Below the pieces are notes generated by a model that had not been told where the DNA came from, searched no databases, and worked only from the letters and a program-made list of their open reading frames with translations. A stretch of 64,000 nt of DNA from Candidatus Poribacteria bacterium (GTDB lineage Bacteria; Poribacteria; WGA-4E; WGA-3G), in assembly GCA_022394775.1 (NCBI GenBank), contig JAGFCB010000076.1, positions 407-64,406 on the forward strand. Reading direction: 5' to 3'. The translations under genes were made by a program, and so were the position numbers. Of the stretch, positions 19,004-35,638 are shown piece by piece. Every line of letters begins with the position of its first letter. Within the stretch, counting starts at the first letter, position 1.

Positions 19004-21439
19004 CTAAGGACTTATAGAATTTTGGCGATATAATTGTGCCCAATGACTCCGCTGTTTCCAGTCTTCCATTTTTAGTAGCGTTCCGCGAGGCAATACTTCA
19101 TCTGCTGCGATCTCGGCGAACACGCTTATCGCGGTCTTGTAATCTTTCTGATGATAGGCATTGATACCTATTGTCTTCCGTGTATCTAACAGAAGACTGT
19201 CGTATTGTTGTGGTGTCAGTTGTCCTGCTGATGGCGTTTTTGGAGAAATCTCATCCGATATCTGGGCTTTTTCTAAGAGTGCTACCGCGTTGTGCAGATA
19301 CTGATTACTGCTCTGCCATGCCCCTTCTTTATGAAGCAATTCACTGGCTAAGAGATATGCTAACCACATATCTGGTGCTCTTTGAATGCATGTTGACAAA
19401 TATGCCATTTTCTCTGCTGCATCTTTGGGTTCAACCAAGACAGTGCGGAGTAACTCTCGAAGCGATCGATCCTCTTGTATTGCTGCATTTGGTTGGAGCT
19501 GGCTTATACTCGAATAAGAGAGTGCTACGATCCGCTTGATACGTCTTTGTTCAATTGTATCATATTCTGTTTCGATAGAGGTGTATGCGTTCAATGCTTT
19601 TTCGTGTTCGTTTTTTAGCCAGTAAATATCGCCTTTCAGCAGCATTGCTTCAGGACTAAACCGGGTGTCTTCCGCGCTTGCAATTTGGTCCGCTAAAGAT
19701 AACGCCCTGTCATAATTCCGCATTCGATATGCACTATACATCAGTCCCCGCAGTGTGGTTAAATTCTCAGGTTCATCTGATAGCATTTTCTCAAAGTTCT
19801 CCACAGCGGTGACGAAATCCTTTTGAAAATATGCCTGCCACGCGGTATTCCGCAGCGCAGCCATTTCATGGGCACAGACGCGTTCAAAAACACTGCGTTG
19901 CTCTAAACGGTAGCTTGCATAGGCTATATCTTCATCTTGTAATGGTACAGTTTCTAAAAAATCAATCCACTCGGCTTCAAGCGAATACAAATCCTTGCTA
20001 TAGTGTCGGACAAAATCACCGAACGGGAAAGTTGCTTTAAATTTCTCTATGCCATAAGTATCAACGAGAAACCGAACAAAGGAGCCTGCCAGCAAATAAC
20101 TCTGGGAACCGGCGTGTCCCCAAAATTCGATCCCCATGACAGCTGACAACGGAGGTGCAATCTCCATTTGACGCATCGCCTTAGCCCATTGGTGCGCCGT
20201 GAGTCTGCCTTCACTCCAATCTGCGGCGACCGCAATCCCTTCATGAAGTCCAATCTTCAGACTTACTTTCAGAGGCGACCAAGGCACAGTAAACACATGT
20301 GCCAATTCGTGCTTCAAGACGGGATGCGGAAAACCTTGGGCGTGGATATGAAATCCATGTCCGAACGGATCTTCCACGGATGTATTGCCTGCGCCGATCA
20401 ACTGCTTCTTCTGTTCAGGTGATGCATAGATATAAGTGCGGACTTTTCGAGAGAGTTCATCACCGTTAGGTGCGAGATAAGCAACCAATTGTGTGTATTG
20501 GAACTCGCAGTCCTCAACGATCCGCTCGATATCCGTTTCGAGTTCGCGTGCGTAGAAAATCTCAAAATGCTCTGTTTCACGGAAGCCCCCAAGTTTTTCG
20601 GCAATATCGCCGCGAGTCGGGCGGATGCCTAACGCGCCTGCATAGAATTGGAAACCGAGTAAGCAGATTATTAACAGATACAACGCTAAACGATTAGTAG
20701 GTAGACTGAACAGTTTACGCCACTTCAGTTTCGGCATCAATGCTGTGTCCCTGCTGATTTCACAAATACTAACTGGAAGCCCTAAAAACAGGAGTGCCCA
20801 GAGTAGTGTTTCCGCGCGAGCGATCAGTAGCGTATCTGTTATCCGAATAACGAAATCGTAAATCGGTCCTGGAAAATATCCGAATGTCGCGTGATACGCA
20901 AATACCGGCGGATGAAATATCAGATTGATGACCACCGGCACAAAGGAAAGCAAAAGATATCCGAGATATGCCAAATATGCCAACCACCGTCTCTGAATCC
21001 AGAACCCAAAGAATGTTCCTGTTGCTGTCGCGTATACACAACTGATTACAGGTAGAAGAAAAAAGAAGAGAAATCCTTCACTAAAATTGCAATTTTTAAT
21101 GCGTAACGCATTCAGCAGGATGATAACGAGCGGTAGTATGAGCAGCCCCAAGTTAAAGAGTAGTGCACTCCAGAAACACCGGATCACAATCTGTCTCGGT
21201 GAACGGGAAAGGGTCTCAGGCTGTCGTTTCATCTGCCACACGACTGTGAGGGGCACATGCCCTCCAGCGAAAGAGATACTGAGTGCTAACACGGCACAAA
21301 ACTCAAAAGCAAGGATGTTAAACAGCGGCATATTGGCAAGCATCAGTGCCAATGCACCGAATAAGGTAAACCACAGCCAATATGAGAGTGTCCTATGTAT
21401 CGTAGGTTGGATGCCCATCTTCTGCAAATTCAAAGTCAT
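19004..21439 (-). CDS. Polytopic membrane protein with HExxH metalloprotease-like domain and C-terminal TPR repeats
   Basis: About 9 hydrophobic helices in the first 260 aa, HELAHVF zinc-binding-type motif, then TPR-like repeats; 811 aa. Confidence 0.65.
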   Translation of the reverse strand: MTLNLQKMGIQPTIHRTLSYWLWFTLFGALALMLANMPLFNILAFEFCAVLALSISFAGGHVPLTVVWQMKRQPETLSRSPRQIVIRCFWSALLFNLGLLILPLVIILLNALRIKNCNFSEGFLFFFLLPVISCVYATATGTFFGFWIQRRWLAYLAYLGYLLLSFVPVVINLIFHPPVFAYHATFGYFPGPIYDFVIRITDTLLIARAETLLWALLFLGLPVSICEISRDTALMPKLKWRKLFSLPTNRLALYLLIICLLGFQFYAGALGIRPTRGDIAEKLGGFRETEHFEIFYARELETDIERIVEDCEFQYTQLVAYLAPNGDELSRKVRTYIYASPEQKKQLIGAGNTSVEDPFGHGFHIHAQGFPHPVLKHELAHVFTVPWSPLKVSLKIGLHEGIAVAADWSEGRLTAHQWAKAMRQMEIAPPLSAVMGIEFWGHAGSQSYLLAGSFVRFLVDTYGIEKFKATFPFGDFVRHYSKDLYSLEAEWIDFLETVPLQDEDIAYASYRLEQRSVFERVCAHEMAALRNTAWQAYFQKDFVTAVENFEKMLSDEPENLTTLRGLMYSAYRMRNYDRALSLADQIASAEDTRFSPEAMLLKGDIYWLKNEHEKALNAYTSIETEYDTIEQRRIKRIVALSYSSISQLQPNAAIQEDRSLRELLRTVLVEPKDAAEKMAYLSTCIQRAPDMWLAYLLASELLHKEGAWQSSNQYLHNAVALLEKAQISDEISPKTPSAGQLTPQQYDSLLLDTRKTIGINAYHQKDYKTAISVFAEIAADEVLPRGTLLKMEDWKQRSHWAQLYRQNSISP

Positions 21440-21539: not shown

Positions 21540-21720
21540 TAAGAGGGGTTGATTTTTGCTGATCATTAAAATTTTCGCGTCTTTTCTCCACCCTTATCAC
21601 GTAACTATCCCATTGAACTTATTTTTTTACCTTCACGACCTGTAACACTACACACGTGGACTTTGGCGCAAGCGACATTTAAGCCTCGCGCGTCTTGTGG
21701 AAATAAAAGGAGGCATCTCT

Positions 21721-23715
21721 ATGGAAAACAGGCAACCTTTGACTCCCGCGTTAAGACTGGTTGAAGATACAGATGTGACAACTTGGGAACTTCCCGATGG
21801 CGCGATTGCCCGATTGGGACAAGGACTCATATTTGGCATGGCGTTTTCGCCGGATAACGCGTTGCTTGCTGTTGGAACGTACGTCGGGGTATGGATGTAT
21901 GAAATTGACACGATGCAGCCCGTCACACTGTTTGAAACCGAACGCGGCCTGATTTCTAACGTTGTGCTTTCACCCGATGGAAAATGGGTTGCCACCAGTA
22001 ACGCGGACGGTATCATCAATGTGCGAGAAATAGAGACCCAGCAGCGTGTGGCGAAGATACAAGGCTGGCACGACGGAACTTCCCAACTTGCCTTTTCACC
22101 GGATAGCCAATACATCGCCGCATCTGGCCGCGAATACGGCGACGTTTACATCTGGAGTGCGAAAAACGGCTACCACGTCGCAAGTTTCAAAGAAGTGAGA
22201 ATCACACCGAAGGAAGATGAACGGCTCCCTGCCCGTTTGCCAATCTGCTTTTCACCGGATGGACAGCTGCTCGCTTATTCTACTGGCTCGTACCCCCTTA
22301 CGGTCCAAAACCTAAAAACGAAAGAACGTTTCGCTTGGCTGGTTCCAGAACGTCATCTGTGCGAATCAGGACATCTGTATGATCTTGTCTTTTCACCTTG
22401 TGGTCAGTTTCTTGCTGCGAGTCTTCAGGATCGAACGACACGTGAGAATATTGAGGTGCAAGTGTGGAATATTGATAAAGAGACTTTGGAGATGACTTAC
22501 ACAGACTACGGCGGAACTCGGACGATTCTTGCCTATTCCGCTGATGGCGCGTTACGGGTTGCTGATGTTTATGAAGACAAGGTAGTGATGTGGGATGCAT
22601 CCCGGGGTGAAAAACTTGATACCATTGAACATCAAGGAAAAGGTAGGACGGAACAATGTATCTCGACAGATGGACAACAGTTCGCAATTCTCACTGAACG
22701 CTATATCCGCGTGTGGCGTGCAGGCTCCCCTGCTACAACAGCACCGCTCACAGTGCCGCATCAGGTGCCCGAATCTCTGTTTTTTTATCAATCGAGCAAG
22801 AGGTTGGCTTGCAAATACTGGTTTGAAGATGTCGTTTTCTGGGATGTTGTTCAGAAACAGGTGATACCTTCTCCGATCAAGACAAAGAGCAGAGGCAAGA
22901 GGTGTGCATTGTCTCCTTGTGAAGAATTATTGGCTCTCAACGAAGAAGATGGACAAACGCTTGAAGTTTGGAACATCACGTCTGGTACCCGAATAGCAGA
23001 ACTCACTGAACACCAAAGTCTTATCACCACTGTGGTGTTTTCACCATTGGGGGAACACCTCATCAGCGGAGATGTAGATGGAAAACTTGTTGTGTGGCGT
23101 GTCCACTGTTGGGAAAAGCAGCATGCATTTATAGCGCATGCAAGGCCGTTTCGGACAGCAGCCTTTCACCCCAACGGAAAGCAATTCGCTACTACTGACG
23201 GGAGCAGTATATTTCTTTGGGACGTTACGAGTGGAGAACAGCTTGGTTCACCTTCTGTAGACTCCACCTTTGTTGCCCTATATAAAGGAGATATGAGACA
23301 AATCCAGAAACAAATGCGGTCACCTCACAAACCTTCAAAGTATCTCCATTCAATTACATTTTCACCTTGTGGCACTTTGTTGGCTGGTGGATTATACGGT
23401 GGGATTCATCTGTGGGATGCTGCAACTTTAGAGCCGCACATGGGGATGATTCTACCTGAGACATGCTCGCATATTGGTGTTGTTGTGTTTTCACCATGTG
23501 GTCGGTATCTTGCCTCTGGTTCTTGGTGGAACAAAACCGACAAAGTCTCTGTCCGTTTATGGGACGTAGCCACTGGGGAAAATATTCACACCTTCTGGGG
23601 GCATACCTCAGATGTTCAAAATCTCGCTTTTTCAAAGGATAGCGAACGCTTGGCAAGTAGCAGCTATGACGGTACCGTTCTCCTCTGGGATATGAAACCG
23701 TTCTTGAGTTCTTAA
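21721..23715 (+). CDS. WD40 repeat protein (about 14 blades), paralog 1
   Basis: AAGGAGG RBS 7 nt before the ATG at 21721. Repeated FSPDG/FSPCG...W(D/E) units throughout, no other domain. Confidence 0.85.
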   Translation: MENRQPLTPALRLVEDTDVTTWELPDGAIARLGQGLIFGMAFSPDNALLAVGTYVGVWMYEIDTMQPVTLFETERGLISNVVLSPDGKWVATSNADGIINVREIETQQRVAKIQGWHDGTSQLAFSPDSQYIAASGREYGDVYIWSAKNGYHVASFKEVRITPKEDERLPARLPICFSPDGQLLAYSTGSYPLTVQNLKTKERFAWLVPERHLCESGHLYDLVFSPCGQFLAASLQDRTTRENIEVQVWNIDKETLEMTYTDYGGTRTILAYSADGALRVADVYEDKVVMWDASRGEKLDTIEHQGKGRTEQCISTDGQQFAILTERYIRVWRAGSPATTAPLTVPHQVPESLFFYQSSKRLACKYWFEDVVFWDVVQKQVIPSPIKTKSRGKRCALSPCEELLALNEEDGQTLEVWNITSGTRIAELTEHQSLITTVVFSPLGEHLISGDVDGKLVVWRVHCWEKQHAFIAHARPFRTAAFHPNGKQFATTDGSSIFLWDVTSGEQLGSPSVDSTFVALYKGDMRQIQKQMRSPHKPSKYLHSITFSPCGTLLAGGLYGGIHLWDAATLEPHMGMILPETCSHIGVVVFSPCGRYLASGSWWNKTDKVSVRLWDVATGENIHTFWGHTSDVQNLAFSKDSERLASSSYDGTVLLWDMKPFLSS

Positions 23716-23749
23716 GATATTACTTGCCACAATAAAATTGGAGATATTG

Positions 23750-25747
23750 ATGGAAGATCAACGATCACAAATAATCGCACGAACTACCAAAACAAACGGT
23801 GATGTAACAACTTGGAAACTGCCCGAGGGTGCAATTGCTCGGTTAGGTAGGGGAATCATAGCGGATTTGGTGTTTTCGCCAGATGGTGAATCTCTCGCGA
23901 TCGCAACTACCGTTGGTGTTTGGATCTATGAACTTGCGACCATGAAGCCCATCACATTGTTGGAAACTGAAAGGGGATTGGTTTCTACCATTTCCTTTTC
24001 ACCGAATAGACAATGGATTGCTACCAGCAACTGGGACGGTATCATTAAGGTATGGGAGACAGAGACACAACGGTGCACCGCCAAAATACAAGGATGGCAC
24101 GGTGGTACCTCCCAACTCGCTTTTTCACCGGATAGTCAATATCTCGCTGCATCTGGCAAAGGTTATGGTGACGTTTATGTCTGGAACGCAGAGACCGGCA
24201 TGCACGTTGCAAGTTTCCCAGTCGTAGGTACTCCAAAAAAAGGCGAACGACTACCCACCAGTTTTCCAGTTTGCTTTTCACCCGATGGGCAGTGTATCGC
24301 TTATGTTTCGGGTCGATCCACGCTTGCTGTTCGACATATAGAAACGAAAGAACACATTGCGATCCTGAAACGCTCGCCCCGAAAACAGATACAAGGTCTT
24401 GCCTTTTCACCGTGTGGACGGTTCCTTGCTGTTGGGAGTCAAAATACATCTACCAATCGTCAGAACACCGAGTTGCAAGTATGGGATCTTGATAATGAAA
24501 CCGTTGAGATGATTGATTCGGACTACGATGGCGATAAGTTGATACCTGCCTATTCGTCTGATGGGACCTTGCGGGTTGCTGACTTGTATAAAGACAAAGC
24601 GATGCTGTGGGAGGCATCGCGGCGAGAGAAACTTAATACTTTTGAATACGGAAGAAGAGCCAAAAAGACTTTTAGGTTTTCATCTGATGGACAGCAATTC
24701 GCAATCGCCACAGAGTGTGAGGTGCGTGTGTGGGATACGGACATGCCCTCCACGGTAGTGTCTCATCTGGAGCATACGCGTATGGTTCGGACACTGTTTT
24801 TTATTCAGGGCGGCAAGACATTGGTGAGTGGATACGGAGGCGAAAGCGGTCTTGTGTTCTGGGATGTTGCCCAGAAGCGAGCACGGCAAATACTAAGTCC
24901 CTCTTACGGAAGGTGTGCTATATCCCCGTCTGAAGAGATATTGGCTACCGCCGTTGGAGAAAATGGGGAAACGATTGAAGTCTTGCAGGTTGTCTCAGGA
25001 AAACCGATTGCAACACTCACCAAACATCAGCGTTATGTAACTGCCCTTGCGTTCTCACCTACAGGCGAACATCTTGTTAGTGGGGACGAAGATGGAAACT
25101 TATTCGTGTGGTCTGTTGAGCCTTGGCGAGAGCTGCAAGAACTCATCGGTCATACCAATGGGATTACAACAGCGGTATTTCATCCGAATGGCTCACACGT
25201 TATCACGGCATCCCGCGATCACACAACCCGCGTCTGGGATTTTGAGAGCGGTGAACGGCTTGCTTCACTGCCTATGGAGGAGGCATCGGATATTTCGCTG
25301 TATAAAGGCGACCAGCGTCAAATCCGGCGCATATTTAATCGTCTGAGTCAGGGATACAGTCATAAGTCCACCCTCCATTCAATCACGTTTTCTCCATCTG
25401 GTGATATCATCGCCGGTGGGCTACACCGCGAGATACGTTTATGGGACGCTACGACTTACGAGACCCGCATGGCGATAATCCCACCGGATACTTGTCAGCG
25501 TCCGAATGTAGTGATATTTTCGCCCTGTGGTCGGTATTTCGTCTCCGGTTCTTGGTGGCAAGAAGGGCAAGAAAAGGTGTCCATCCGGTTGTGGGAAGTT
25601 TCAACAGGCGAGAACATTGCGACCTTCTGGAGTCATCCGACAGATATTCAATATCTCGCTTTTTCATCGGATGGTGCGCTCTTAGCAAGTGGTAGTTTTG
25701 ACGGCACTATCCTGCTCTGGGATATGAAACCGTTTATAGATGCTTGA
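23750..25747 (+). CDS. WD40 repeat protein (about 14 blades), paralog 2
   Basis: Collinear with paralog 1 (shared TTWELPDGAIARLG, IQGWHGGTSQLAFSPDSQY, LYKGD.RQI, LLWDMKPF); 34 nt after paralog 1. Confidence 0.85.
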   Translation: MEDQRSQIIARTTKTNGDVTTWKLPEGAIARLGRGIIADLVFSPDGESLAIATTVGVWIYELATMKPITLLETERGLVSTISFSPNRQWIATSNWDGIIKVWETETQRCTAKIQGWHGGTSQLAFSPDSQYLAASGKGYGDVYVWNAETGMHVASFPVVGTPKKGERLPTSFPVCFSPDGQCIAYVSGRSTLAVRHIETKEHIAILKRSPRKQIQGLAFSPCGRFLAVGSQNTSTNRQNTELQVWDLDNETVEMIDSDYDGDKLIPAYSSDGTLRVADLYKDKAMLWEASRREKLNTFEYGRRAKKTFRFSSDGQQFAIATECEVRVWDTDMPSTVVSHLEHTRMVRTLFFIQGGKTLVSGYGGESGLVFWDVAQKRARQILSPSYGRCAISPSEEILATAVGENGETIEVLQVVSGKPIATLTKHQRYVTALAFSPTGEHLVSGDEDGNLFVWSVEPWRELQELIGHTNGITTAVFHPNGSHVITASRDHTTRVWDFESGERLASLPMEEASDISLYKGDQRQIRRIFNRLSQGYSHKSTLHSITFSPSGDIIAGGLHREIRLWDATTYETRMAIIPPDTCQRPNVVIFSPCGRYFVSGSWWQEGQEKVSIRLWEVSTGENIATFWSHPTDIQYLAFSSDGALLASGSFDGTILLWDMKPFIDA

Positions 25748-25790: not shown

Positions 25791-25820
25791 TTGCAGTTTT
25801 AAAGAAGAATATGTTAAAAT
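25791..25820 (+). promoter_or_regulatory. Putative extended -10 promoter upstream of pspA
   Basis: TTGCAG (25791-25796), 18-nt spacer, TGtTAAAAT (25812-25820). Confidence 0.4.
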
Positions 25821-25935
25821 ACGATGTGATGAGTTTTGCAGTGCGGCGCAAAACCGCGCAAACAGACATCAGCACAACTCACGAAACACTACAGAAAGGT
25901 CACGCTTATATGGCGTGCCAACAGGAGGAGTTAAA

Positions 25936-26772
25936 ATGGCAAACGGATTCACACGATTGTTCAAGTCTATCTGGTATACGCTGACGGGTCGCGCACACGA
26001 GACCGCGGACAGAATGATGGAAAACCCTGAAGCCGTTAGAGGGGCTTATGAGGACATCATCAGCGATAAGAAAGGCAACATCCAACGTTATAAGCAAGCC
26101 ATCGGTCAGCTGATTGCACTTGTTGAACAGAAGAGATCTTCGGTAAAGAATCTTACCGATGAAGTCGAAAATTTGGAAGAATTGAAAGCTGGGGCAATTG
26201 CGAAAGCGCAGCAGACCGCTGCGGATTTACAAAAAGAAGGAATGGCACCAGAAGAAGTCAAACAGCACGCCGAATACACGCGATGTGTTACGGCTTATCA
26301 AGAATTCAATTCTAATCTACAAGAGAAAGAGACGCGCATTGATGAACTCGAGGGTGAGATCGAAAATGCCCAATCGGATATTGATTCCCATAAAATCCAG
26401 ATTACCAGCCTACATCGTGATTTAGATAAGATTAAGAGCGAGCAGTCTGAAGCGGTTGCTGATCTAATCACTGCGCGCGAGCAAGAAGAGATCGCTGATA
26501 TGCTTTCGGGTATCAGTATGGACGGAACCTCTGCTGAATTGTCTCGGATGCGAGAGATCCGTGAAAAAGCGAAAGGACGTTCAAAGGTCGCACAGGAATT
26601 GGCAGGTACGGATTCCAAAAGCGAAGAGGAAGAATTCCTCGCTGCAGCGCGTTCATCTAATGCCTCGGACGAGTTTGACGCTTTGATTTTTGGGGCACAA
26701 CAGACGGACACAAAAACGGAGACGGAACCCGCTAAGAAGACAGAGGATTCTGATTCTGAGCTGCCGCTCTAA
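25936..26772 (+). CDS. pspA: PspA/IM30 (Vipp1) family protein with long acidic C-terminal tail
   Basis: AGGAGGAG RBS then ATG at 25936. N-terminal MANGFTRLFKSIWYTLTGRAHETADRMMENPE...AYEDII and continuous coiled-coil heptads typical of PspA_IM30. The last ~60 aa are acidic and low complexity (EEEEFLAAARSSNASDEFDALIFG...DSDSELPL). The upstream 64 codons in the ORF track look non-coding. Confidence 0.82.
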   Translation: MANGFTRLFKSIWYTLTGRAHETADRMMENPEAVRGAYEDIISDKKGNIQRYKQAIGQLIALVEQKRSSVKNLTDEVENLEELKAGAIAKAQQTAADLQKEGMAPEEVKQHAEYTRCVTAYQEFNSNLQEKETRIDELEGEIENAQSDIDSHKIQITSLHRDLDKIKSEQSEAVADLITAREQEEIADMLSGISMDGTSAELSRMREIREKAKGRSKVAQELAGTDSKSEEEEFLAAARSSNASDEFDALIFGAQQTDTKTETEPAKKTEDSDSELPL

Positions 26773-26849
26773 GGTGCTATCAACAAAATAGGTCTGCTCT
26801 TTAGATTGGAAGGGGGCGAGAACTTATAGCCGTTAAAAGCCCAACTTAT

Positions 26850-26874
26850 GCATTCCGCACAGAAGCCGGAATGC
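26850..26874 (+). promoter_or_regulatory. Hairpin sequestering the AAA+ ATPase start codon
   Basis: GCATTCCG (26850-26857), 9-nt loop, CGGAATGC (26867-26874). The ATG at 26871-26873 lies in the 3' arm. Confidence 0.4.
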
Positions 26875-28712
26875 TCATTAATTCAGGAACGTCTCGCAGT
26901 CTCGTCCTGTCTGGAAATATCCACGATCTTTTTTTTATACGCGAAAAAGATGACACGGATTATATTACGCTCGTCCCTTTTCTGACCCATAGTTGGGATA
27001 TAGACGGGTTCATTCTGATCGTTTACGAACTCAACGGTCCCATAAGATTTGCTCAAGAAGCTGAACGTGAAAAAGTTAAGCAAGCGTTCAACCAATGGCG
27101 AGGCACGACCGAGACGGATCTTGATATAAAAGCGAGGGGTGGCATACCCAGTTCTACACAGGCAGCACGGTCTCCAAGGACATCTCTCGGTTCACTTGAT
27201 GCCGCCACAGAGCCATCGGATGCATCTTTTACGCAGTACATGAACGACGCTATCGGCAGCCCGACGTTAGCACTTGAACTCCTTCGTCAATTTTGCCTGC
27301 TCTCCCGCAGCACAAACGCACAAGGCGAAAAGCTGTTATCAGAGAAACTGATTATCCTGATAGAAGCAGCAGACATGTTGCTCCCGGAAGGCGAAATTCG
27401 GAGCCTCTCCCTCCCTGACAGACACAGGGTCAGTATCGTTCAGGATTGGATATCCGACTCCAATTTCATGAACGGTAACGATACGGTAATCTTCATCACA
27501 GAATCTCCGAGTCTCCTGAATTCTCGGATTATTAGGTTACCGCAGGTTGTCACTGTTGAAATACCAGCACCCGGAATGTCGGAACGTCAGCATTTTGTTT
27601 CATGGTTTAACAACACACCGAAATTGGTAGAGAAGCCGTTAAACCTCTGGGGCACACAAGTACAACTCGCAATGCTGACTGCCGGGTTATCCATACAAGC
27701 ACTCCGCCAACTCCTTCTTGCTGCCTGTTATGCTGGTGAGAGACTCCAACCGGAAACTGTTATTGAGAAAGTCTCTGAATTTATCCAAGCGCAGTTGGGT
27801 GAAGATGTTGTAGAGTTCAAAAAACCAGCACATAGTCTAAAAGATATCGTTGGGAACCAAAAACTGGTGGATTTTCTTAAAACGCAGCTGATCCCGCGTA
27901 TTACTTCAACCGGTCCTGATGCGCTCGCTGGGATGAGCGTTTGCGGTCCCATCGGCAGTGGAAAAACCTTTATTTTTGAGGGGCTTGCCGGTGAACTTGA
28001 TATACCTGTCCTTGTCCTCAAGAATATCCGTAGTATGTGGTTCGGACAGACGGATGTCATCTTTGAACGGCTCCGGCGGTTGTTGATGGCGCTCGTGAAG
28101 GTGCTCATCTTCGTTGATGAAGCGGATACGCAATTCGGTGGTGTCGGACAGGACGCACATAGCACTGAACGACGTTTGACGGGAAAGATACAGGCGATGA
28201 TGTCGGATCCGCAGCTGCGTGGTAACATCACATGGCTGCTGATGACCGCCCGCATCTACAATCTTTCTCCCGACTTGCGACGGGAAGGCAGAGTCGGGGA
28301 TATGGTGGTGCCGGTGCTCGATCCGAGCGGTGAAGACCGTGAGGCGTTCCTCCGTTGGACGATTGCGAAAGCTTTATCGGGTTCTCTCCCTGACGATGCA
28401 GTGGAACGGCTTTTGAAGGTAACTGAAGGCTATTCTGCTGCCAGTTTCGCCTCGTTGCGTTCTGACCTTGAAGCCGCCAGCATTTTGAAGGAAGATTTGC
28501 AGGCTACGGGTGAACTTACTTTAGATGAAATCATCGCTGTCGCCGAAGATCGGATTCTACCGAATATTGGACCGATAAGACAATACCAAACCTTACAAGC
28601 CCTCCTCAATTGCACACGGAAATCGCTACTCCCGGGCGACTATTCCCCAGAAATCCGAGAATCGTGGGTAAAACAGATTGCGCAACTTGAAGCGATAGGT
28701 GTTAGCGGATAG
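26871..28712 (+). CDS. Two-module AAA+ ATPase (degenerate N-terminal module, active classical-clade C-terminal module)
   Basis: C-terminal module: Walker A GPIGSGKT (27945-27968), Walker B LIFVDEAD (28104-28127), SRH-like NLSPDLRREGRVGD. N-terminal module keeps the AAA layout but has LVLSGNIHD at the P-loop position and LIILIEAAD at the Walker B position. Lies 98 nt downstream of pspA on the same strand. Confidence 0.8.
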   Translation: MLINSGTSRSLVLSGNIHDLFFIREKDDTDYITLVPFLTHSWDIDGFILIVYELNGPIRFAQEAEREKVKQAFNQWRGTTETDLDIKARGGIPSSTQAARSPRTSLGSLDAATEPSDASFTQYMNDAIGSPTLALELLRQFCLLSRSTNAQGEKLLSEKLIILIEAADMLLPEGEIRSLSLPDRHRVSIVQDWISDSNFMNGNDTVIFITESPSLLNSRIIRLPQVVTVEIPAPGMSERQHFVSWFNNTPKLVEKPLNLWGTQVQLAMLTAGLSIQALRQLLLAACYAGERLQPETVIEKVSEFIQAQLGEDVVEFKKPAHSLKDIVGNQKLVDFLKTQLIPRITSTGPDALAGMSVCGPIGSGKTFIFEGLAGELDIPVLVLKNIRSMWFGQTDVIFERLRRLLMALVKVLIFVDEADTQFGGVGQDAHSTERRLTGKIQAMMSDPQLRGNITWLLMTARIYNLSPDLRREGRVGDMVVPVLDPSGEDREAFLRWTIAKALSGSLPDDAVERLLKVTEGYSAASFASLRSDLEAASILKEDLQATGELTLDEIIAVAEDRILPNIGPIRQYQTLQALLNCTRKSLLPGDYSPEIRESWVKQIAQLEAIGVSG

Positions 28713-28958: not shown

Positions 28959-29216
28959 ATGAACCGCGGAAACATGGTAGTGCCAGAAACTGCAAGGCGT
29001 ATGACTATACAAGAAATGGAAGATAAATATCCTAACCAATGGCTGTTTATCGTTGACTGTATTATTAATCCGGAAACGACGCAGCTTGTTTCAGGTATAG
29101 TTACAGTCTGGAGTCCTTCACGCCGCGATGTAGATGAAGCATCCGGTGAATATGTAGGTAATGCTGCAATACATTACACTGGCGAAATACCTAAAGATAG
29201 AATGTATCTATTATAA
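28959..29216 (+). CDS. Small uncharacterized protein (85 aa), first gene of the hic cassette
   Basis: AAGGGGG RBS then ATG at 28959. The KYPNQWLFIVD...IHYTGEIP pattern loosely recalls DUF5678-type small proteins (unverified). Confidence 0.55.
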   Translation: MNRGNMVVPETARRMTIQEMEDKYPNQWLFIVDCIINPETTQLVSGIVTVWSPSRRDVDEASGEYVGNAAIHYTGEIPKDRMYLL

Positions 29217-29226
29217 GGTGAACAAA

Positions 29227-29445
29227 ATGCAACCATTCAAAATTATTATCGAAAAACATACCGATGGCTATGTTGCTTATCCATTAGGATTGAAAGGTGT
29301 TGTCATTGGACAAGGTAATACCTACGAAGAAAGCATTGTGGACGTAACTTCTGCAATTCGGTTTTATATTGAAACTTTTGGAAAAGAAGAACTTGAAGCA
29401 GAGGAACCTGCTTTGGACGTTTTCGTAACTGAAGTAAACATCTGA
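29227..29445 (+). CDS. hicB: HicB-like (UPF0150) antitoxin
   Basis: 72 aa. FKIIIEKHTDGYVAYPLGLKGVVIGQGNTYEESI matches the HicB N-terminal fold signature. Its stop overlaps the next start (TGATG). Confidence 0.7.
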   Translation: MQPFKIIIEKHTDGYVAYPLGLKGVVIGQGNTYEESIVDVTSAIRFYIETFGKEELEAEEPALDVFVTEVNI

Positions 29446-29684
29446 TGTCTCGTTTTCCTACGGATGCCCCTAAAAACAGAGTTGTCCGGGCATTAGAACA
29501 ATTAGGATATCGTATAATTCGTGAACGGAATCATATCTGTATGGCGCGTGAGAATCCAGATGGAAGCCGAAATGTATTAGTCTTGCCGAATCATCGTCGT
29601 ATCAAAGGCTCAACATTGCGCAGGATTTGTACCCAAGCTGGCATTTCCAGAGCTGCATTCCTGGAAGCTTATAGGCTGATATAA
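29445..29684 (+). CDS. hicA: HicA-like (YcfA family) mRNA interferase toxin
   Basis: 79 aa. VVRALEQLGYRIIRERNHICMAR...VLPNHRRIKGSTLRRICTQAGIS is a typical HicA/YcfA pattern. Confidence 0.72.
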   Translation: MSRFPTDAPKNRVVRALEQLGYRIIRERNHICMARENPDGSRNVLVLPNHRRIKGSTLRRICTQAGISRAAFLEAYRLI

Positions 29685-33307: not shown

Positions 33308-34108
33308 ATGAAGGTCTTTGAAACGCTGTCATTCATGGCGAGGAACCCAATTCCATTCATCGTTCAGTTGGTATGCTGGTTTCTCTATGTTGGTTTAAAC
33401 GTTGCATCACAGGATCCATCTGCAGAGGGTTCATCTATGCGCGATCCGCGCAATCCGTGGCCACGTGTGCTTTCGCTAATACAAACCTCCTTGAGCGACC
33501 TACCTGAATCGCTTGAGAACTTCGCTATAATCGTTTCGGTTATTTTTGACGATGTTGTCAAAGAGGTCGTAAGAGATGAAGGTTGGATTTTCATCGTTCT
33601 TCCTGCTCTCATCATCGGTTACCGAGAAGCGAAAGGCAATCTAAAAGGCATTGCCAAAGAACGACAGACGTGGATGCAGTGGTACGATCAGCAACCGGAA
33701 GTTATAAGAGAAGATGTAGTGCTTACGGAACCACCATCGAAATCAGAAGCGACACAAGTTAACACTTATTTCAGTAAAGCGCGAAGAACTGTATCCGTTA
33801 TGTTTCGCAATCCGATGTTTTTTATTCTTCATTTCACATGCTGGTTTTCCCCTTTTGTTTTGCTATTCGTTGTCGTAGAGTGGGCAGGTGTTATTGAGAC
33901 AGCACGCAATTTTGCGAACGTTTTCTTCAAAACTGCTATATTCTTTGGTATACCGGCTTTAATCTCCTGTTACCAAGAGACACGAGGAACCGTAAAAGGT
34001 ATAGCGAAAGAGGGAGAGGTCTGGTCGAAGTGGCACCAACGACAGATTAAGGCAGTAGCAGATGGCTATCCGGTTGCATCACCGCCACCATCGTTAAACA
34101 TTTTTTGA
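33308..34108 (+). CDS. Membrane protein built from 2 copies of an unnamed ~120-aa two-helix module
   Basis: Each module has F(M)xRNPxxFIxxxxCWF (TM1), then TM2, then Y(R/Q)E(A/T)(K/R)GxxKGIAKExxxWxxW(Y/H)xxQ and an EPP/PPPS linker. Confidence 0.75.
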   Translation: MKVFETLSFMARNPIPFIVQLVCWFLYVGLNVASQDPSAEGSSMRDPRNPWPRVLSLIQTSLSDLPESLENFAIIVSVIFDDVVKEVVRDEGWIFIVLPALIIGYREAKGNLKGIAKERQTWMQWYDQQPEVIREDVVLTEPPSKSEATQVNTYFSKARRTVSVMFRNPMFFILHFTCWFSPFVLLFVVVEWAGVIETARNFANVFFKTAIFFGIPALISCYQETRGTVKGIAKEGEVWSKWHQRQIKAVADGYPVASPPPSLNIF

Positions 34109-34219
34109 TTTTTACTTACACAACCTCTTTGCAGGGTTTTTGCTTGGGGGTTTCTTCAGGGTTTAAAACCCCGTCTACAGTGCTTACGGGAATAAAATCC
34201 CTTATGAGGAAAGTAGATA

Positions 34220-35638
34220 GTGAAAGCGAAAAGACCACTGTTATTTATGCTTTGGAACCCCATGCCTTTTATCGCTTACACGCTTGCATGTGGCATATTG
34301 CTCTCTGCCTTGATTACCATGTCAGATGATCCTTTTGTATACGGTGTATTACCAGATGCGACTGAGGCAGCAAACGGAGCCTTTGTGGATTTACCTGGGT
34401 CCCTCTGGAAATTAGTTACAGCCTTTTCACTCGTTGTTGAAGAAGTCGTCGGGGATTTCCATTATGGAGTTCTCATAATTGTTGTCCCGCTTGCGCTTGC
34501 ATTTGGTTATAGAGAGGCGAGAGGCAGTCGAAAGGGTATTACAACAGAGCGAAAAGCGTGGATGCAGTGGTACGAGCGTCAACAGTTAGTAAAGGCGCAG
34601 CAAGGCACTTACGAGACACCACCGTTATCAGAATATATCCCGGGCGGCTCCTATTTCATATCCGCACGGAAAACAGTGCTATTCATGCTTCGGCACGCAT
34701 CCCTCCTAATCGGTCATTTCGTCTGTTGGTTTACACTGTTCGCGCTTCCTATTCTATTTTTCGACACAGGCGATTTTGTGCGATCCCTTCCTGAAATTGT
34801 TATCTATGCCGTTATATTCACGCTCATGCTTAGCTACCGAGAGGCGAGAAGCAACCTGAAAGGTGTCGCTATAGAGAGAGGCATCTGGACGAAGTGGTAT
34901 GCCCGACAAATCAAGGCGATTGCTCAGGAAGGTGCCCTTAAAGAGCCACCATCATCGGAAAATATGAGAGCCTATTCTTATTTCGGGGAAATCCCAGAAA
35001 CCCTATTTTTTATGATCCGTAACCTGAAGCCGTTTATTGTTCATCTTACGTGTTGGATTTCCGCGTATGTGTTTCTAATCTTTATGACACTCCGACCCGA
35101 GGACACGCCTGAAGATATTTTTGAAGTATTTGACTTAATAGGTATGTTTGGAGAAATGCTGCCTTGGATCGCTCTTATTGTTTTCGTGATTGGTTACCGA
35201 GAGGCAAGAGGCAACCTAAAAGGTATTGCTAATGCGCAACAAGTATGGATGCAGTGGTACCAACGGCAACAAGAAACGATAAACCGTGGAGAGGTTTTTG
35301 AGGAACCACCCCCATCAGAGGGTCCGCAAACAAATTCTTATTTCAGAACAGCACAAAAGACTCTGCAATTCATCGCACACCATCCGATGTCTCTTATAGT
35401 TCATTTGGCTTGCTGGTTTCTCGCCTTTATTTTCAGATACGGCGATTTTCTCGCTTTTATGCCGATCCTTTTTGTGATTATACCTGCTCTCATCTCCTGT
35501 TATCAAGAAGCAAGAGGTACGGTAAAAGGCATTGGAAAAGAAGGCGCGGAATGGATGAAATGGTATCAACGGCAAACTGGTGCCAAAGAGCAAGCGTATT
35601 CCCTTGCTGAGATGCCACCCGCCTTAAACGCTGGTTGA
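34220..35638 (+). CDS. Membrane protein built from 4 copies of the same ~120-aa module (tandem paralog)
   Basis: GTG start at 34220 after GAGGAAAG. MKAKRPLLFMLWNPMPFIAYTL parallels the start of the first gene. Four YREARGxxKG(I/V)...W(M/T)(Q/K)WY.RQ motifs. Confidence 0.75.
   Translation: MKAKRPLLFMLWNPMPFIAYTLACGILLSALITMSDDPFVYGVLPDATEAANGAFVDLPGSLWKLVTAFSLVVEEVVGDFHYGVLIIVVPLALAFGYREARGSRKGITTERKAWMQWYERQQLVKAQQGTYETPPLSEYIPGGSYFISARKTVLFMLRHASLLIGHFVCWFTLFALPILFFDTGDFVRSLPEIVIYAVIFTLMLSYREARSNLKGVAIERGIWTKWYARQIKAIAQEGALKEPPSSENMRAYSYFGEIPETLFFMIRNLKPFIVHLTCWISAYVFLIFMTLRPEDTPEDIFEVFDLIGMFGEMLPWIALIVFVIGYREARGNLKGIANAQQVWMQWYQRQQETINRGEVFEEPPPSEGPQTNSYFRTAQKTLQFIAHHPMSLIVHLACWFLAFIFRYGDFLAFMPILFVIIPALISCYQEARGTVKGIGKEGAEWMKWYQRQTGAKEQAYSLAEMPPALNAG

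Follow-up and report, generated by a model that had tools for sequence, protein, structure and literature searches.

A conserved PspA and tandem AAA+ ATPase gene pair in Candidatus Poribacteria, a minimal member of a known, uncharacterised bacterial system

The locus described here consists of a gene for a PspA-like protein and a downstream gene for a AAA+ ATPase, both on the plus strand of a 64,000-nucleotide (nt) stretch of Candidatus Poribacteria DNA (the window; NCBI GenBank assembly GCA_022394775.1, contig JAGFCB010000076.1, positions 407 to 64,406). The closest described system comes from comparative genomics, which associated PspA with a protein made of an inactive and a classical AAA module (mSystems 2024, PMC11237479; preprint 2020), and ATP-dependent membrane remodelling comparable to that by Snf7 and Vps4 was proposed for it. 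Its examples are AEY64320.1/AEY64321.1 from Clostridium sp. BNL1100 and the OGG56892.1 operon of Ca. Handelsmanbacteria. An earlier note on the window had presented the pairing and its Vps4-like reading as novel, but both had already been published as computational predictions. As in the published family, the ATPase of the window carries two AAA modules in one polypeptide, the N-terminal module is inactive and a PspA gene is the neighbour; the operon order in a distant subgroup of its relatives is also that of the published Ca. Handelsmanbacteria operon. Unlike that operon, the window holds the two-gene core only, and its membership in the published family is read from the identical architecture and operon order. 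The passages and supplement text considered from that article mention neither the Poribacteria lineage nor three features described below, namely an AUA/AUC start, a C-terminal ELP[LVI] motif and a variant with X607. Full-text literature searches found no experimental study of a bacterial PspA-ATPase pair. The locus is a minimal member of a known, uncharacterised system, and the interpretation discussed here is reasonable and already predicted in print.

It is an open question how bacterial relatives of ESCRT-III such as PspA and Vipp1 are disassembled or recycled, and this gene pair may bear on it. According to a 2025 review, a Vps4-like ATPase or regulator 'appears absent in bacteria' (PMC7619361), and Makarova et al. 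(mBio 2024, PMC10936438) placed ESCRT systems, composed of vps4 and ESCRT-III, only in archaea and eukaryotes. The latter study also described haloarchaeal 'Halo_adaptin' loci, in which a weakly PspA-like gene lies upstream of a Vps4-like ATPase that has a Cdc48/VAT-type N domain and no MIT domain. Compared by description only, these loci resemble the window in that a classical-clade ATPase without MIT directly follows a PspA-like gene, and they differ in being archaeal, in their N-terminal Cdc48/VAT-like substrate-recognition domain and in their winged-helix partners. The two genes of the window and their main parts are listed below, with the start of the ATPase gene as corrected in this analysis.

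25936-26772, plus strand: pspA-like gene (PspA/Vipp1/IM30 family, ESCRT-III superfamily), 278 amino acids (aa), start ATG 25936
26602-26769, plus strand: acidic C-terminal tail of the PspA-like protein, aa 223-278, 56 aa
26826-28712, plus strand: tandem (type II) classical AAA+ ATPase gene, 628 aa, 53 nt after the pspA stop
26871-27830, plus strand: degenerate first AAA module (D1), with pseudo-Walker A LSGNIHDLF at 26907-26933 and pseudo-Walker B LIILIEAAD at 27348-27374
27831-28712, plus strand: second AAA module (D2), predicted to be active, with intact motifs (alignment A1) and a family-specific C-terminal region

Close homologues of both proteins are assigned to Candidatus Poribacteria, a phylum of sponge symbionts. 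We compared the gene neighbourhood in the best 80 loci of a scan (alignment A2), all of them Poribacteria at the species level, and, for other phyla, in single-locus look-ups and in a scan of metagenomes that used a distant subgroup of the ATPase as seed. In 77 of the 80 Poribacteria loci a PspA-like gene precedes the ATPase gene on the same strand, and the remaining three contigs do not extend far enough upstream to cover this region. In the distant subgroup, whose ATPases are about 29% identical to that of the window, the metagenome scan returned 80 loci, and PspA is encoded on the same strand in 23 of the 29 that have the full 6-kb upstream flank. Single loci elsewhere also carry the pair, so that the earlier note's concern, a lack of conserved linkage between this ATPase and pspA, is not borne out. 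In the window clade the pair is kept while its flanking genes vary, which speaks for the two proteins being sufficient as partners. Based on these neighbourhoods, the two genes are a conserved functional pair, of which the window contains the minimal two-gene form, and the two proteins very probably work together.

The comparison also revealed several operon variants. In the window clade, which comprises about 40 species, the PspA and ATPase genes are directly adjacent (arrangement a). Other Poribacteria encode a transmembrane (TM) coiled-coil protein some way upstream, followed by PspA, a protein of 560-610 aa that we call X607 and the ATPase (arrangement b), or show the order PBP+OmpA, TM coiled-coil protein, PspA, ATP-binding cassette (ABC) binding protein, permease, ABC ATPase and AAA ATPase (arrangement c), or the order of arrangement c with a protein called X557 instead of the transporter (arrangement d). 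X607 and X557 denote a conserved protein of 557-607 aa whose gene separates those of PspA and the ATPase in sister clades (L040:6090-7913, L076:6273-7946 and about 25 other Poribacteria loci); it has no Pfam match and is possibly an adaptor or a third component of the system. None of the accessory genes of arrangements b to d is found within the 64-kb window. The typical order in the distant subgroup is X240, PspA, NMT1+OmpA, permease, ABC_tran, TM coiled-coil protein and ATPase, and the extended operon is present in loci L072, L077, L085, L086, L132 and L154. In locus L083, whose ATPase is about 29% identical to that of the window, a PspA_IM30 gene (E 1e-32) is followed by a gene for a 276-aa product and the ATPase gene, and in L085 and L086 the order is VWA, OmpA, a 269-aa product, PspA-like, binding protein, permease, ABC_tran and ATPase, while L087 has a PspA-like gene and then the ATPase gene. 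For the PspA-like neighbour in L085, L086 and L087 the best Pfam match is PspA_IM30, below threshold. Locus L086 (GCA_040961635.1, JBFOMZ010001239.1) has the full eight-gene system (VWA, OmpA, TM coiled-coil, PspA-like, ABC transporter and ATPase genes) and also carries genes for Ribosomal_L15e, a RadA/Rad51-like protein and an ATP-dependent DNA ligase next to LpxC, which points either to an archaeon that has the system as well or to a chimeric contig. In one Poribacteria lineage (L074:144-2884) two Band_7/flotillin (SPFH) genes lie directly 5' of the PspA gene, echoing published links between PspA and flotillins.

We then examined the architecture of the ATPase, which was modelled, and its residues numbered, from Met 26871. 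The AlphaFold2 (AF2) model has a predicted local distance difference test (pLDDT) score of 88.9 and a predicted template modelling (pTM) score of 0.84. In Foldseek searches both modules together matched p97/Cdc48, Rix7/NVL, Pex1/Pex6 and AFG2 over about 500-690 columns, and mycobacterial Msm0858 as well. The Pfam family PF00004 matched the second half of the protein only (aa 357-476, E 8.9e-15). The first module, D1, is still modelled as a AAA fold, with a low-confidence insert at aa 96-113. In the family alignment (A1, 30 sequences), however, GN(V/I)xDLF replaces its Walker A motif, leaving no Lys, and its Walker B acidic positions are unconserved, being occupied by E, P, R, D, Q or N; the earlier note's description of an N-terminal module that is AAA-like and catalytically dead agrees with these data. 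The second module carries the following motifs.

27945-27968, plus strand: D2 Walker A, GPIGSGKT
28029-28046, plus strand: D2 pore loop 1, RSMWFG
28104-28127, plus strand: D2 Walker B, LIFVDEAD
28245-28301, plus strand: D2 sensor-1 and second region of homology (SRH), TARIYNLSPDLRREGRVGD
28578-28634, plus strand: C-terminal motif, RQYQTLQALLNCTRKSLLP

GPIGSGKT, LIFVDEAD and NLSPDLRREGRVGD had been pointed out in the earlier note, and they are present and conserved in the family, where D2 keeps GPxGxGKT, RS(M)W(F/Y)G, DEAD, the sensor-1 Thr and PDxKRxGR. The invariant or near-invariant D2 columns include G359, G364, K365, G392, D416, E417, T459, R461, D468, R474, Q573, A577, C581 and P588, and after D2 the family has a specific C-terminal motif, R-x2-Q-x3-A-x3-C-T-x3-LLP. 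We defined the classical AAA clade by a Walker A of the form GxxxxGK[ST], a Walker B of the form hhhhDE, an aromatic pore loop 1, an SRH with two Arg and no sensor-2 Arg. D2 of the window shows the features of this clade (GPIGSGKT, FVDEAD, SMWFG and PDLRREGR), and it has GYSAAS where the family has GxSGAD. In the PDB sequence search its pore loop SMWFGQTD aligned with SMW(F/Y)GESE of the p97/Cdc48 D2. Judged from sequence and model together, the protein is a two-module classical-clade AAA+ ATPase with a dead first module, and it would presumably assemble as a hexamer.

The position of D2 within the clade was assessed from ranked matches in NCBIfam, the PDB sequence search and Foldseek. All NCBIfam matches were far below threshold and ranked CDC48, CdvC, FtsH and, weakest, the proteasome-activating nucleotidase PAN; TIGR01243 (CDC48) scored 38.5 bits against a cut-off of 802.65 and NF041006 (CdvC) 29.4 bits against a cut-off of 650. 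The PDB sequence matches were p97/Cdc48, AFG2, NVL and spastin, and per single domain spastin (41 bits) and p97 (33-39 bits) were about equal. Since spastin and p97 domains score alike, D2 is best called a separate classical-clade lineage and is not assigned to the Cdc48 or the Vps4 subfamily. No CbbX or proteasomal ATPase is among the listed PDB matches; the matches are to general classical-clade unfoldases and segregases (Cdc48/p97, AFG2, NVL/Rix7, Pex1/6 and spastin). Among 1.8 billion representatives, 243 clusters at 50% identity belong to the ATPase family at E<=1e-30; the most distant full-length relatives are about 29% identical, and by these searches the family is large and distinct.

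Compared with Vps4 and CdvC, the window ATPase is likewise a classical-clade AAA+ ATPase encoded beside an ESCRT-III-superfamily polymer-former with a flexible C-terminal tail, and the proposed job, ATP-driven extraction of subunits, is the same. The MIT domain of Vps4 and CdvC binds MIM motifs in the tails of ESCRT-III proteins. Unlike these proteins, the window ATPase has two AAA modules and not one, its nearest structures are type II ATPases, its match to the CdvC model stays far below the cut-off, and it lacks MIT: Pfam gave no match to this domain, the first AAA strand starts from modelled residue 10, and only 15 residues precede Met 26871. On both sequence and fold the ATPase is a Vps4 analogue at most, and not a Vps4 orthologue. 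Its best sequence and fold matches, Cdc48/p97, Rix7/NVL, AFG2 and Pex1/Pex6, have the same tandem D1-D2 arrangement, the SMWFG pore loop is identical to that of the p97 D2, and the inactive D1 recalls Pex1/Pex6. In contrast to Cdc48/p97, the window ATPase has lost the P-loop of D1, carries the family-specific Q-x3-A-x3-C-T...LLP motif, stays far below the CDC48 cut-off and has no N-terminal double-psi-barrel substrate/cofactor domain of the Cdc48 type, although the fold resemblance of D1-D2 is strong.

The partner protein is a divergent but, by profile and model, genuine member of the PspA/Vipp1 family. Its PF04012 match is marginal (34.7 bits against a cut-off of 33.9), and the single sequence found Vipp1 in the PDB at E 0.06 only. 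A profile of 13 PspA-like relatives, however, matched Vipp1/PspA chains at E 2e-10 over positions 4-233, and all 120 homologues listed carry PF04012. The AF2 model, which was built from a shallow alignment and has a mean pLDDT of 72, shows the N-terminal amphipathic helix alpha0 (aa 3-15), a helical hairpin (aa 20-100 and 112-191) of about 70-80 residues with pLDDT >90, alpha4 (aa 199-222) and a further helix at aa 229-252; two short helices and a disordered end follow alpha4. The best PDB match of this model in Foldseek is Vipp1 (6zvr, E 3.7e-4). Since the profile- and fold-level matches exceed the divergent single-sequence signal, the identification is firm, in agreement with the PspA/IM30-type coiled-coil protein of 278 aa that the earlier note had read here. 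In locus L040 a truncated pspA duplicate of 229 aa (L040:4324-5013), which lacks the tail and carries an insertion following alpha0, lies immediately 5' of the full-length PspA gene.

The acidic tail ending in SDSELPL, estimated at about 60 aa in the earlier note, comprises 56 residues, 15 of which are D/E and 5 K/R, and is disordered in the AF2 model. It consists of two short helices, EEEFLAAARSS and DEFDALIFGA, a variable linker and the C-terminal SDSELP[LVI] (26749-26769). Among the 77 Poribacteria PspA-like proteins the C-terminal LP[LVI] is found in 76, ELAGTD in 75 and [DE]EF[DE]xLIF in 69. PspA-like proteins from other lineages terminate in KLPE or GLPE, and the PspAs encoded with ATPases of the distant subgroup conserve another ending, composed of ELVKQFKxEMGL, a Pro/Ala-rich linker and EKTIG. 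Conservation of these elements suggests that the tail may serve in docking.

The start of the ATPase gene differs from that in the earlier note, which had placed a 613-aa reading frame 98 nt downstream of pspA. The start region is as follows.

26812-26828, plus strand: ATPase translation start, with Shine-Dalgarno sequence GGGGG at 26812-26816, start codon ATA at 26826-26828 and an in-frame TAG at 26802-26804
26850-26874, plus strand: 8-base-pair hairpin (26850-57 pairing with 26867-74), inside the ATPase coding region

When 27 Poribacteria loci were aligned, the 70 nt ahead of ATG 26871 were conserved with third-position wobble. In the 45 nt ahead of this ATG the column entropy was 0.48, 0.34 and 1.13 at codon positions 1, 2 and 3, respectively, compared with 1.43 in the true upstream region. 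In all 80 Poribacteria loci (L001-L080) an (I/M)A(V/I)KxPxYxFxxEAG sequence is encoded in-frame ahead of the supposed first residue; the N-terminal AVKSPTYAFRTEAG of the window agrees with this family N-terminus (P-x-F ... EAG), and homologues elsewhere have 10-17 more N-terminal residues than the 613-aa reading. As the codon aligned to the family N-terminus, 56 loci have ATA, 18 ATC, 1 ATT and 5 ATG. A GGAGG or GGGGG sequence lies within 25 nt 5' of this codon in Poribacteria loci, the G-run of the window ending 9 nt ahead of ATA 26826, and in many loci an in-frame stop is found only two codons 5' of the start, without a canonical start between them. Because of the coding periodicity, the conserved N-terminus, the Shine-Dalgarno site and the upstream in-frame stops, we conclude that the gene begins at ATA 26826, 53 nt after pspA, and encodes 628 aa. 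ATG 26871 was ruled out as the start, since the 45 nt upstream of it are coding and the codon at this position varies, being GTG, CTG, TTG or TTA in the alignment and specifying M, L, V, T, R or K among species.

AUA, AUC and AUU codons initiate far less efficiently than AUG, the classic case being infC. The near-universal retention of a weak start suggests that low production of the ATPase relative to PspA may be deliberate. The 8-base-pair hairpin which the earlier note had seen as burying the ATPase ATG does exist in the sequence, although the regulatory role suggested for it is not supported, since that ATG is internal. No pair had changed on both sides among 27 sequences, 85.2% of cells were paired compared with 84.9% in shuffles, and local folding was insignificant (z = -0.68); the hairpin was rejected as a translational control element. 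Gene callers that require ATG, GTG or TTG drop 15 conserved residues of the ATPase or extend it wrongly, and database entries of 610-614 and of 632-636 aa both exist. A recombinant ATPase made without the corrected start would likewise miss these 15 conserved N-terminal residues. New in this analysis are the non-AUG start, as corrected here, and the operon variants; it adds to the published prediction the ATA gene start, candidate recognition motifs in the PspA tail and a map of operon variants including the possible adaptor X607.

We propose a model in which the PspA/Vipp1-type protein of this two-gene operon polymerises on the membrane and its partner acts as a dedicated hexameric type II AAA+ unfoldase. 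The dead first ring would probably be a scaffold or docking ring, and the second ring would hydrolyse ATP and thread polypeptide by means of its p97-like Trp-Phe pore loop. The ATPase would grip the flexible acidic tail of PspA, using the conserved amphipathic helix and the invariant ELP[LVI] as a handle, and pull subunits from PspA polymers, so that membrane-bound assemblies would be disassembled, recycled or remodelled. The conserved weak AUA/AUC start would keep the ATPase scarce relative to PspA, and the job that Vps4 does on ESCRT-III would be done by an independently recruited Cdc48-like machine. The data establish the identities of both proteins, their architecture and motifs, the synteny and the start codon, whereas hexamer formation, PspA as substrate, the tail as handle and the expression ratio are inferred. 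The central element of this model, that PspA is the substrate of a dedicated unfoldase encoded next to it, has in our estimate a probability of about 0.5. We favour it because the pairing survives the loss of every other operon member, the pore loop fits threading, and the PspA tail is flexible and ends in an invariant peptide. By analogy, a Vps4-like mechanism is plausible. The fuller proposal, a self-sufficient minimal bacterial 'ESCRT-III plus disassemblase' in which the dead-first-ring ATPase reads ELP[LVI] and the tail helix, threads PspA out of polymers and is sub-stoichiometric owing to its AUA/AUC start, we hold only tentatively, at somewhat under an even chance. If true, bacteria would have solved independently the problem that Vps4 solves, which would contradict the review's view of a Vps4-like regulator as one that 'appears absent in bacteria' (PMC7619361). 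The Poribacteria two-gene form is the smallest observed here and has no accessory components, which makes it a clean candidate for reconstituting ATP-driven PspA remodelling in vitro.

Several observations weigh against PspA as the substrate. The ATPase lacks an MIT-like domain and any other recognisable domain for substrate recognition. As evidence the tail is unspecific, because Vipp1, which has no such ATPase partner, also has a linker and a C-terminal extension. PspA is not found nearby in 6 of the 29 distant loci and in L081. Many relatives insert X607, an ABC transporter or a TM coiled-coil gene between PspA and the ATPase; the true client, or an adaptor, could be one of these products. 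The ATPase might extract other membrane or envelope proteins in the manner of Cdc48, Msp1 or FtsH, with PspA only sealing or stabilising the membrane there; its clients could be the membrane-anchored coiled-coil ('TM+Snf7') protein or components of the ABC transporter / OmpA-binding-protein module. The operons of relatives do carry PBP+OmpA, permease, ABC_tran and TM coiled-coil genes, the ATPase gene often stands directly behind an ABC ATPase or TM protein gene instead of PspA, and in L081 and L082 the link to the transporter persists without a canonical PspA clearly next to it. The window clade, however, keeps PspA and the ATPase adjacent at a locus without those partners, which are absent from the 64-kb window as well, and no other neighbour is as constant across subgroups as PspA. 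We regard such an extractor role as unlikely.

Slightly less probable still is that PspA serves as regulator or adaptor of the ATPase, holding it inactive or recruiting it to damaged membrane and releasing it under envelope stress. The precedent is the proteobacterial PspF-PspA pair, in which E. coli PspA inhibits the AAA+ protein PspF and is not its substrate (PMC7619361), and this precedent also counts against our preferred reading. As in that pair, a AAA+ protein is encoded beside PspA and functionally tied to it. In the window PspA is probably made in excess of the ATPase (AGGAGG and ATG, compared with ATA for the ATPase), a ratio that would fit a stoichiometric inhibitor. Unlike PspF, a sigma-54 enhancer-binding protein with a GAFTGA loop and a helix-turn-helix domain that is inhibited by PspA, the window ATPase has no GAFTGA motif or DNA-binding domain, is not a bacterial enhancer-binding protein and resembles a threading machine; it has the pore loop of a threading unfoldase, and the locus encodes no alternative client. 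No GAFTGA-type activator motif occurs in any frame of the 64-kb window and there is no Sigma54_activat match, in keeping with the earlier observation that the window has no pspF-like gene. We consider it very improbable that the pair belongs to an anti-phage or stress-defence island, or that the adjacency has no functional meaning. A HicA/HicB pair lies just downstream and PADLOC gave weak generic AAA matches to IetA (E 1e-4), but these matches are limited to the P-loop region and far below family level, and the HicAB and WD40 genes occur in few relatives while the PspA-ATPase pair is conserved across phyla. With PADLOC giving only weak generic P-loop or coiled-coil matches, the pair was rejected as a defence system. 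Treating PspA as the substrate of its neighbour remains our preferred reading.

The region upstream of pspA contains two further elements.

25791-25820, plus strand: promoter-like element, with -35 TTGCAG at 25791-25796, an 18-nt spacer, TG at 25812-25813 and -10 TAAAAT at 25815-25820
25898-25919, plus strand: stem-loop in the pspA 5' untranslated region (UTR), GG.CACGCU / GGCGUGCC, a few nt 5' of the Shine-Dalgarno site

The promoter-like element is preceded by an A/T-rich stretch, and its -35 hexamer begins at the first coordinate of the earlier note's finding. In an alignment of 15 window-clade loci (A9), the block TTTTCTTGCAG...ATATGTTAAAATACGAT is nearly invariant and its flanks are variable; a simple sigma-70 scan did not report the element, which we regard as a putative pspA promoter. 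The pspA ATG follows seven bases after a Shine-Dalgarno sequence (AGGAGG, 25923-25928). In per-sequence folding the stem-loop of the window has a minimum free energy of -11.8 kcal/mol and a z-score of -3.5, and the mean z-score over 75 loci is -1.0; one subclade has a weak stem at most. Other Poribacteria lineages have a stem of different sequence at the equivalent place (GUUGCGC/GCGCAAC, GUUCGCGC/GUGCGAAC, GGUGAUUAAU/AUUAAUCACC and GUGAAA/UUUCAC), and this change from lineage to lineage looks compensatory. The stem-loop may act in mRNA stability or in the control of translation. RNAalifold detected nothing on a MAFFT alignment of the pspA 5' UTR, in which the 3' arm is out of register.

The genes surrounding the pair are listed below.

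19004-21439, minus strand: TPR protein gene, left of the WD40 pair
21697-23715 (672 aa) and 23738-25747 (669 aa), plus strand: two tandem paralogous WD40 genes, between the TPR gene and pspA
29161-29684: HicA toxin gene (PF07927, 29445-29684) and a small upstream ORF, possibly a HicB-like antitoxin, between the ATPase and a conserved oxidoreductase gene
Downstream of HicA, minus strand: conserved oxidoreductase-like gene, preceded by small ORFs that include HicA

Only about 400 nt separate the end of the TPR gene from pspA in L001, the closest relative, and we therefore regard the WD40 pair as a strain-specific insertion that lies outside the PspA-ATPase system. The HicA insertion is shared with L001 alone among the 80 loci. 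Further downstream, at 33308-35638, two adjacent ORFs (266 and 472 aa) consist of 2 and 4 copies, respectively, of a unit of about 115 aa, in which a hydrophobic stretch is followed by YREA(K/R)GNLKGIAxE...W(M/S)xWYxRQ and which resembles an unusual repeated membrane-protein module.

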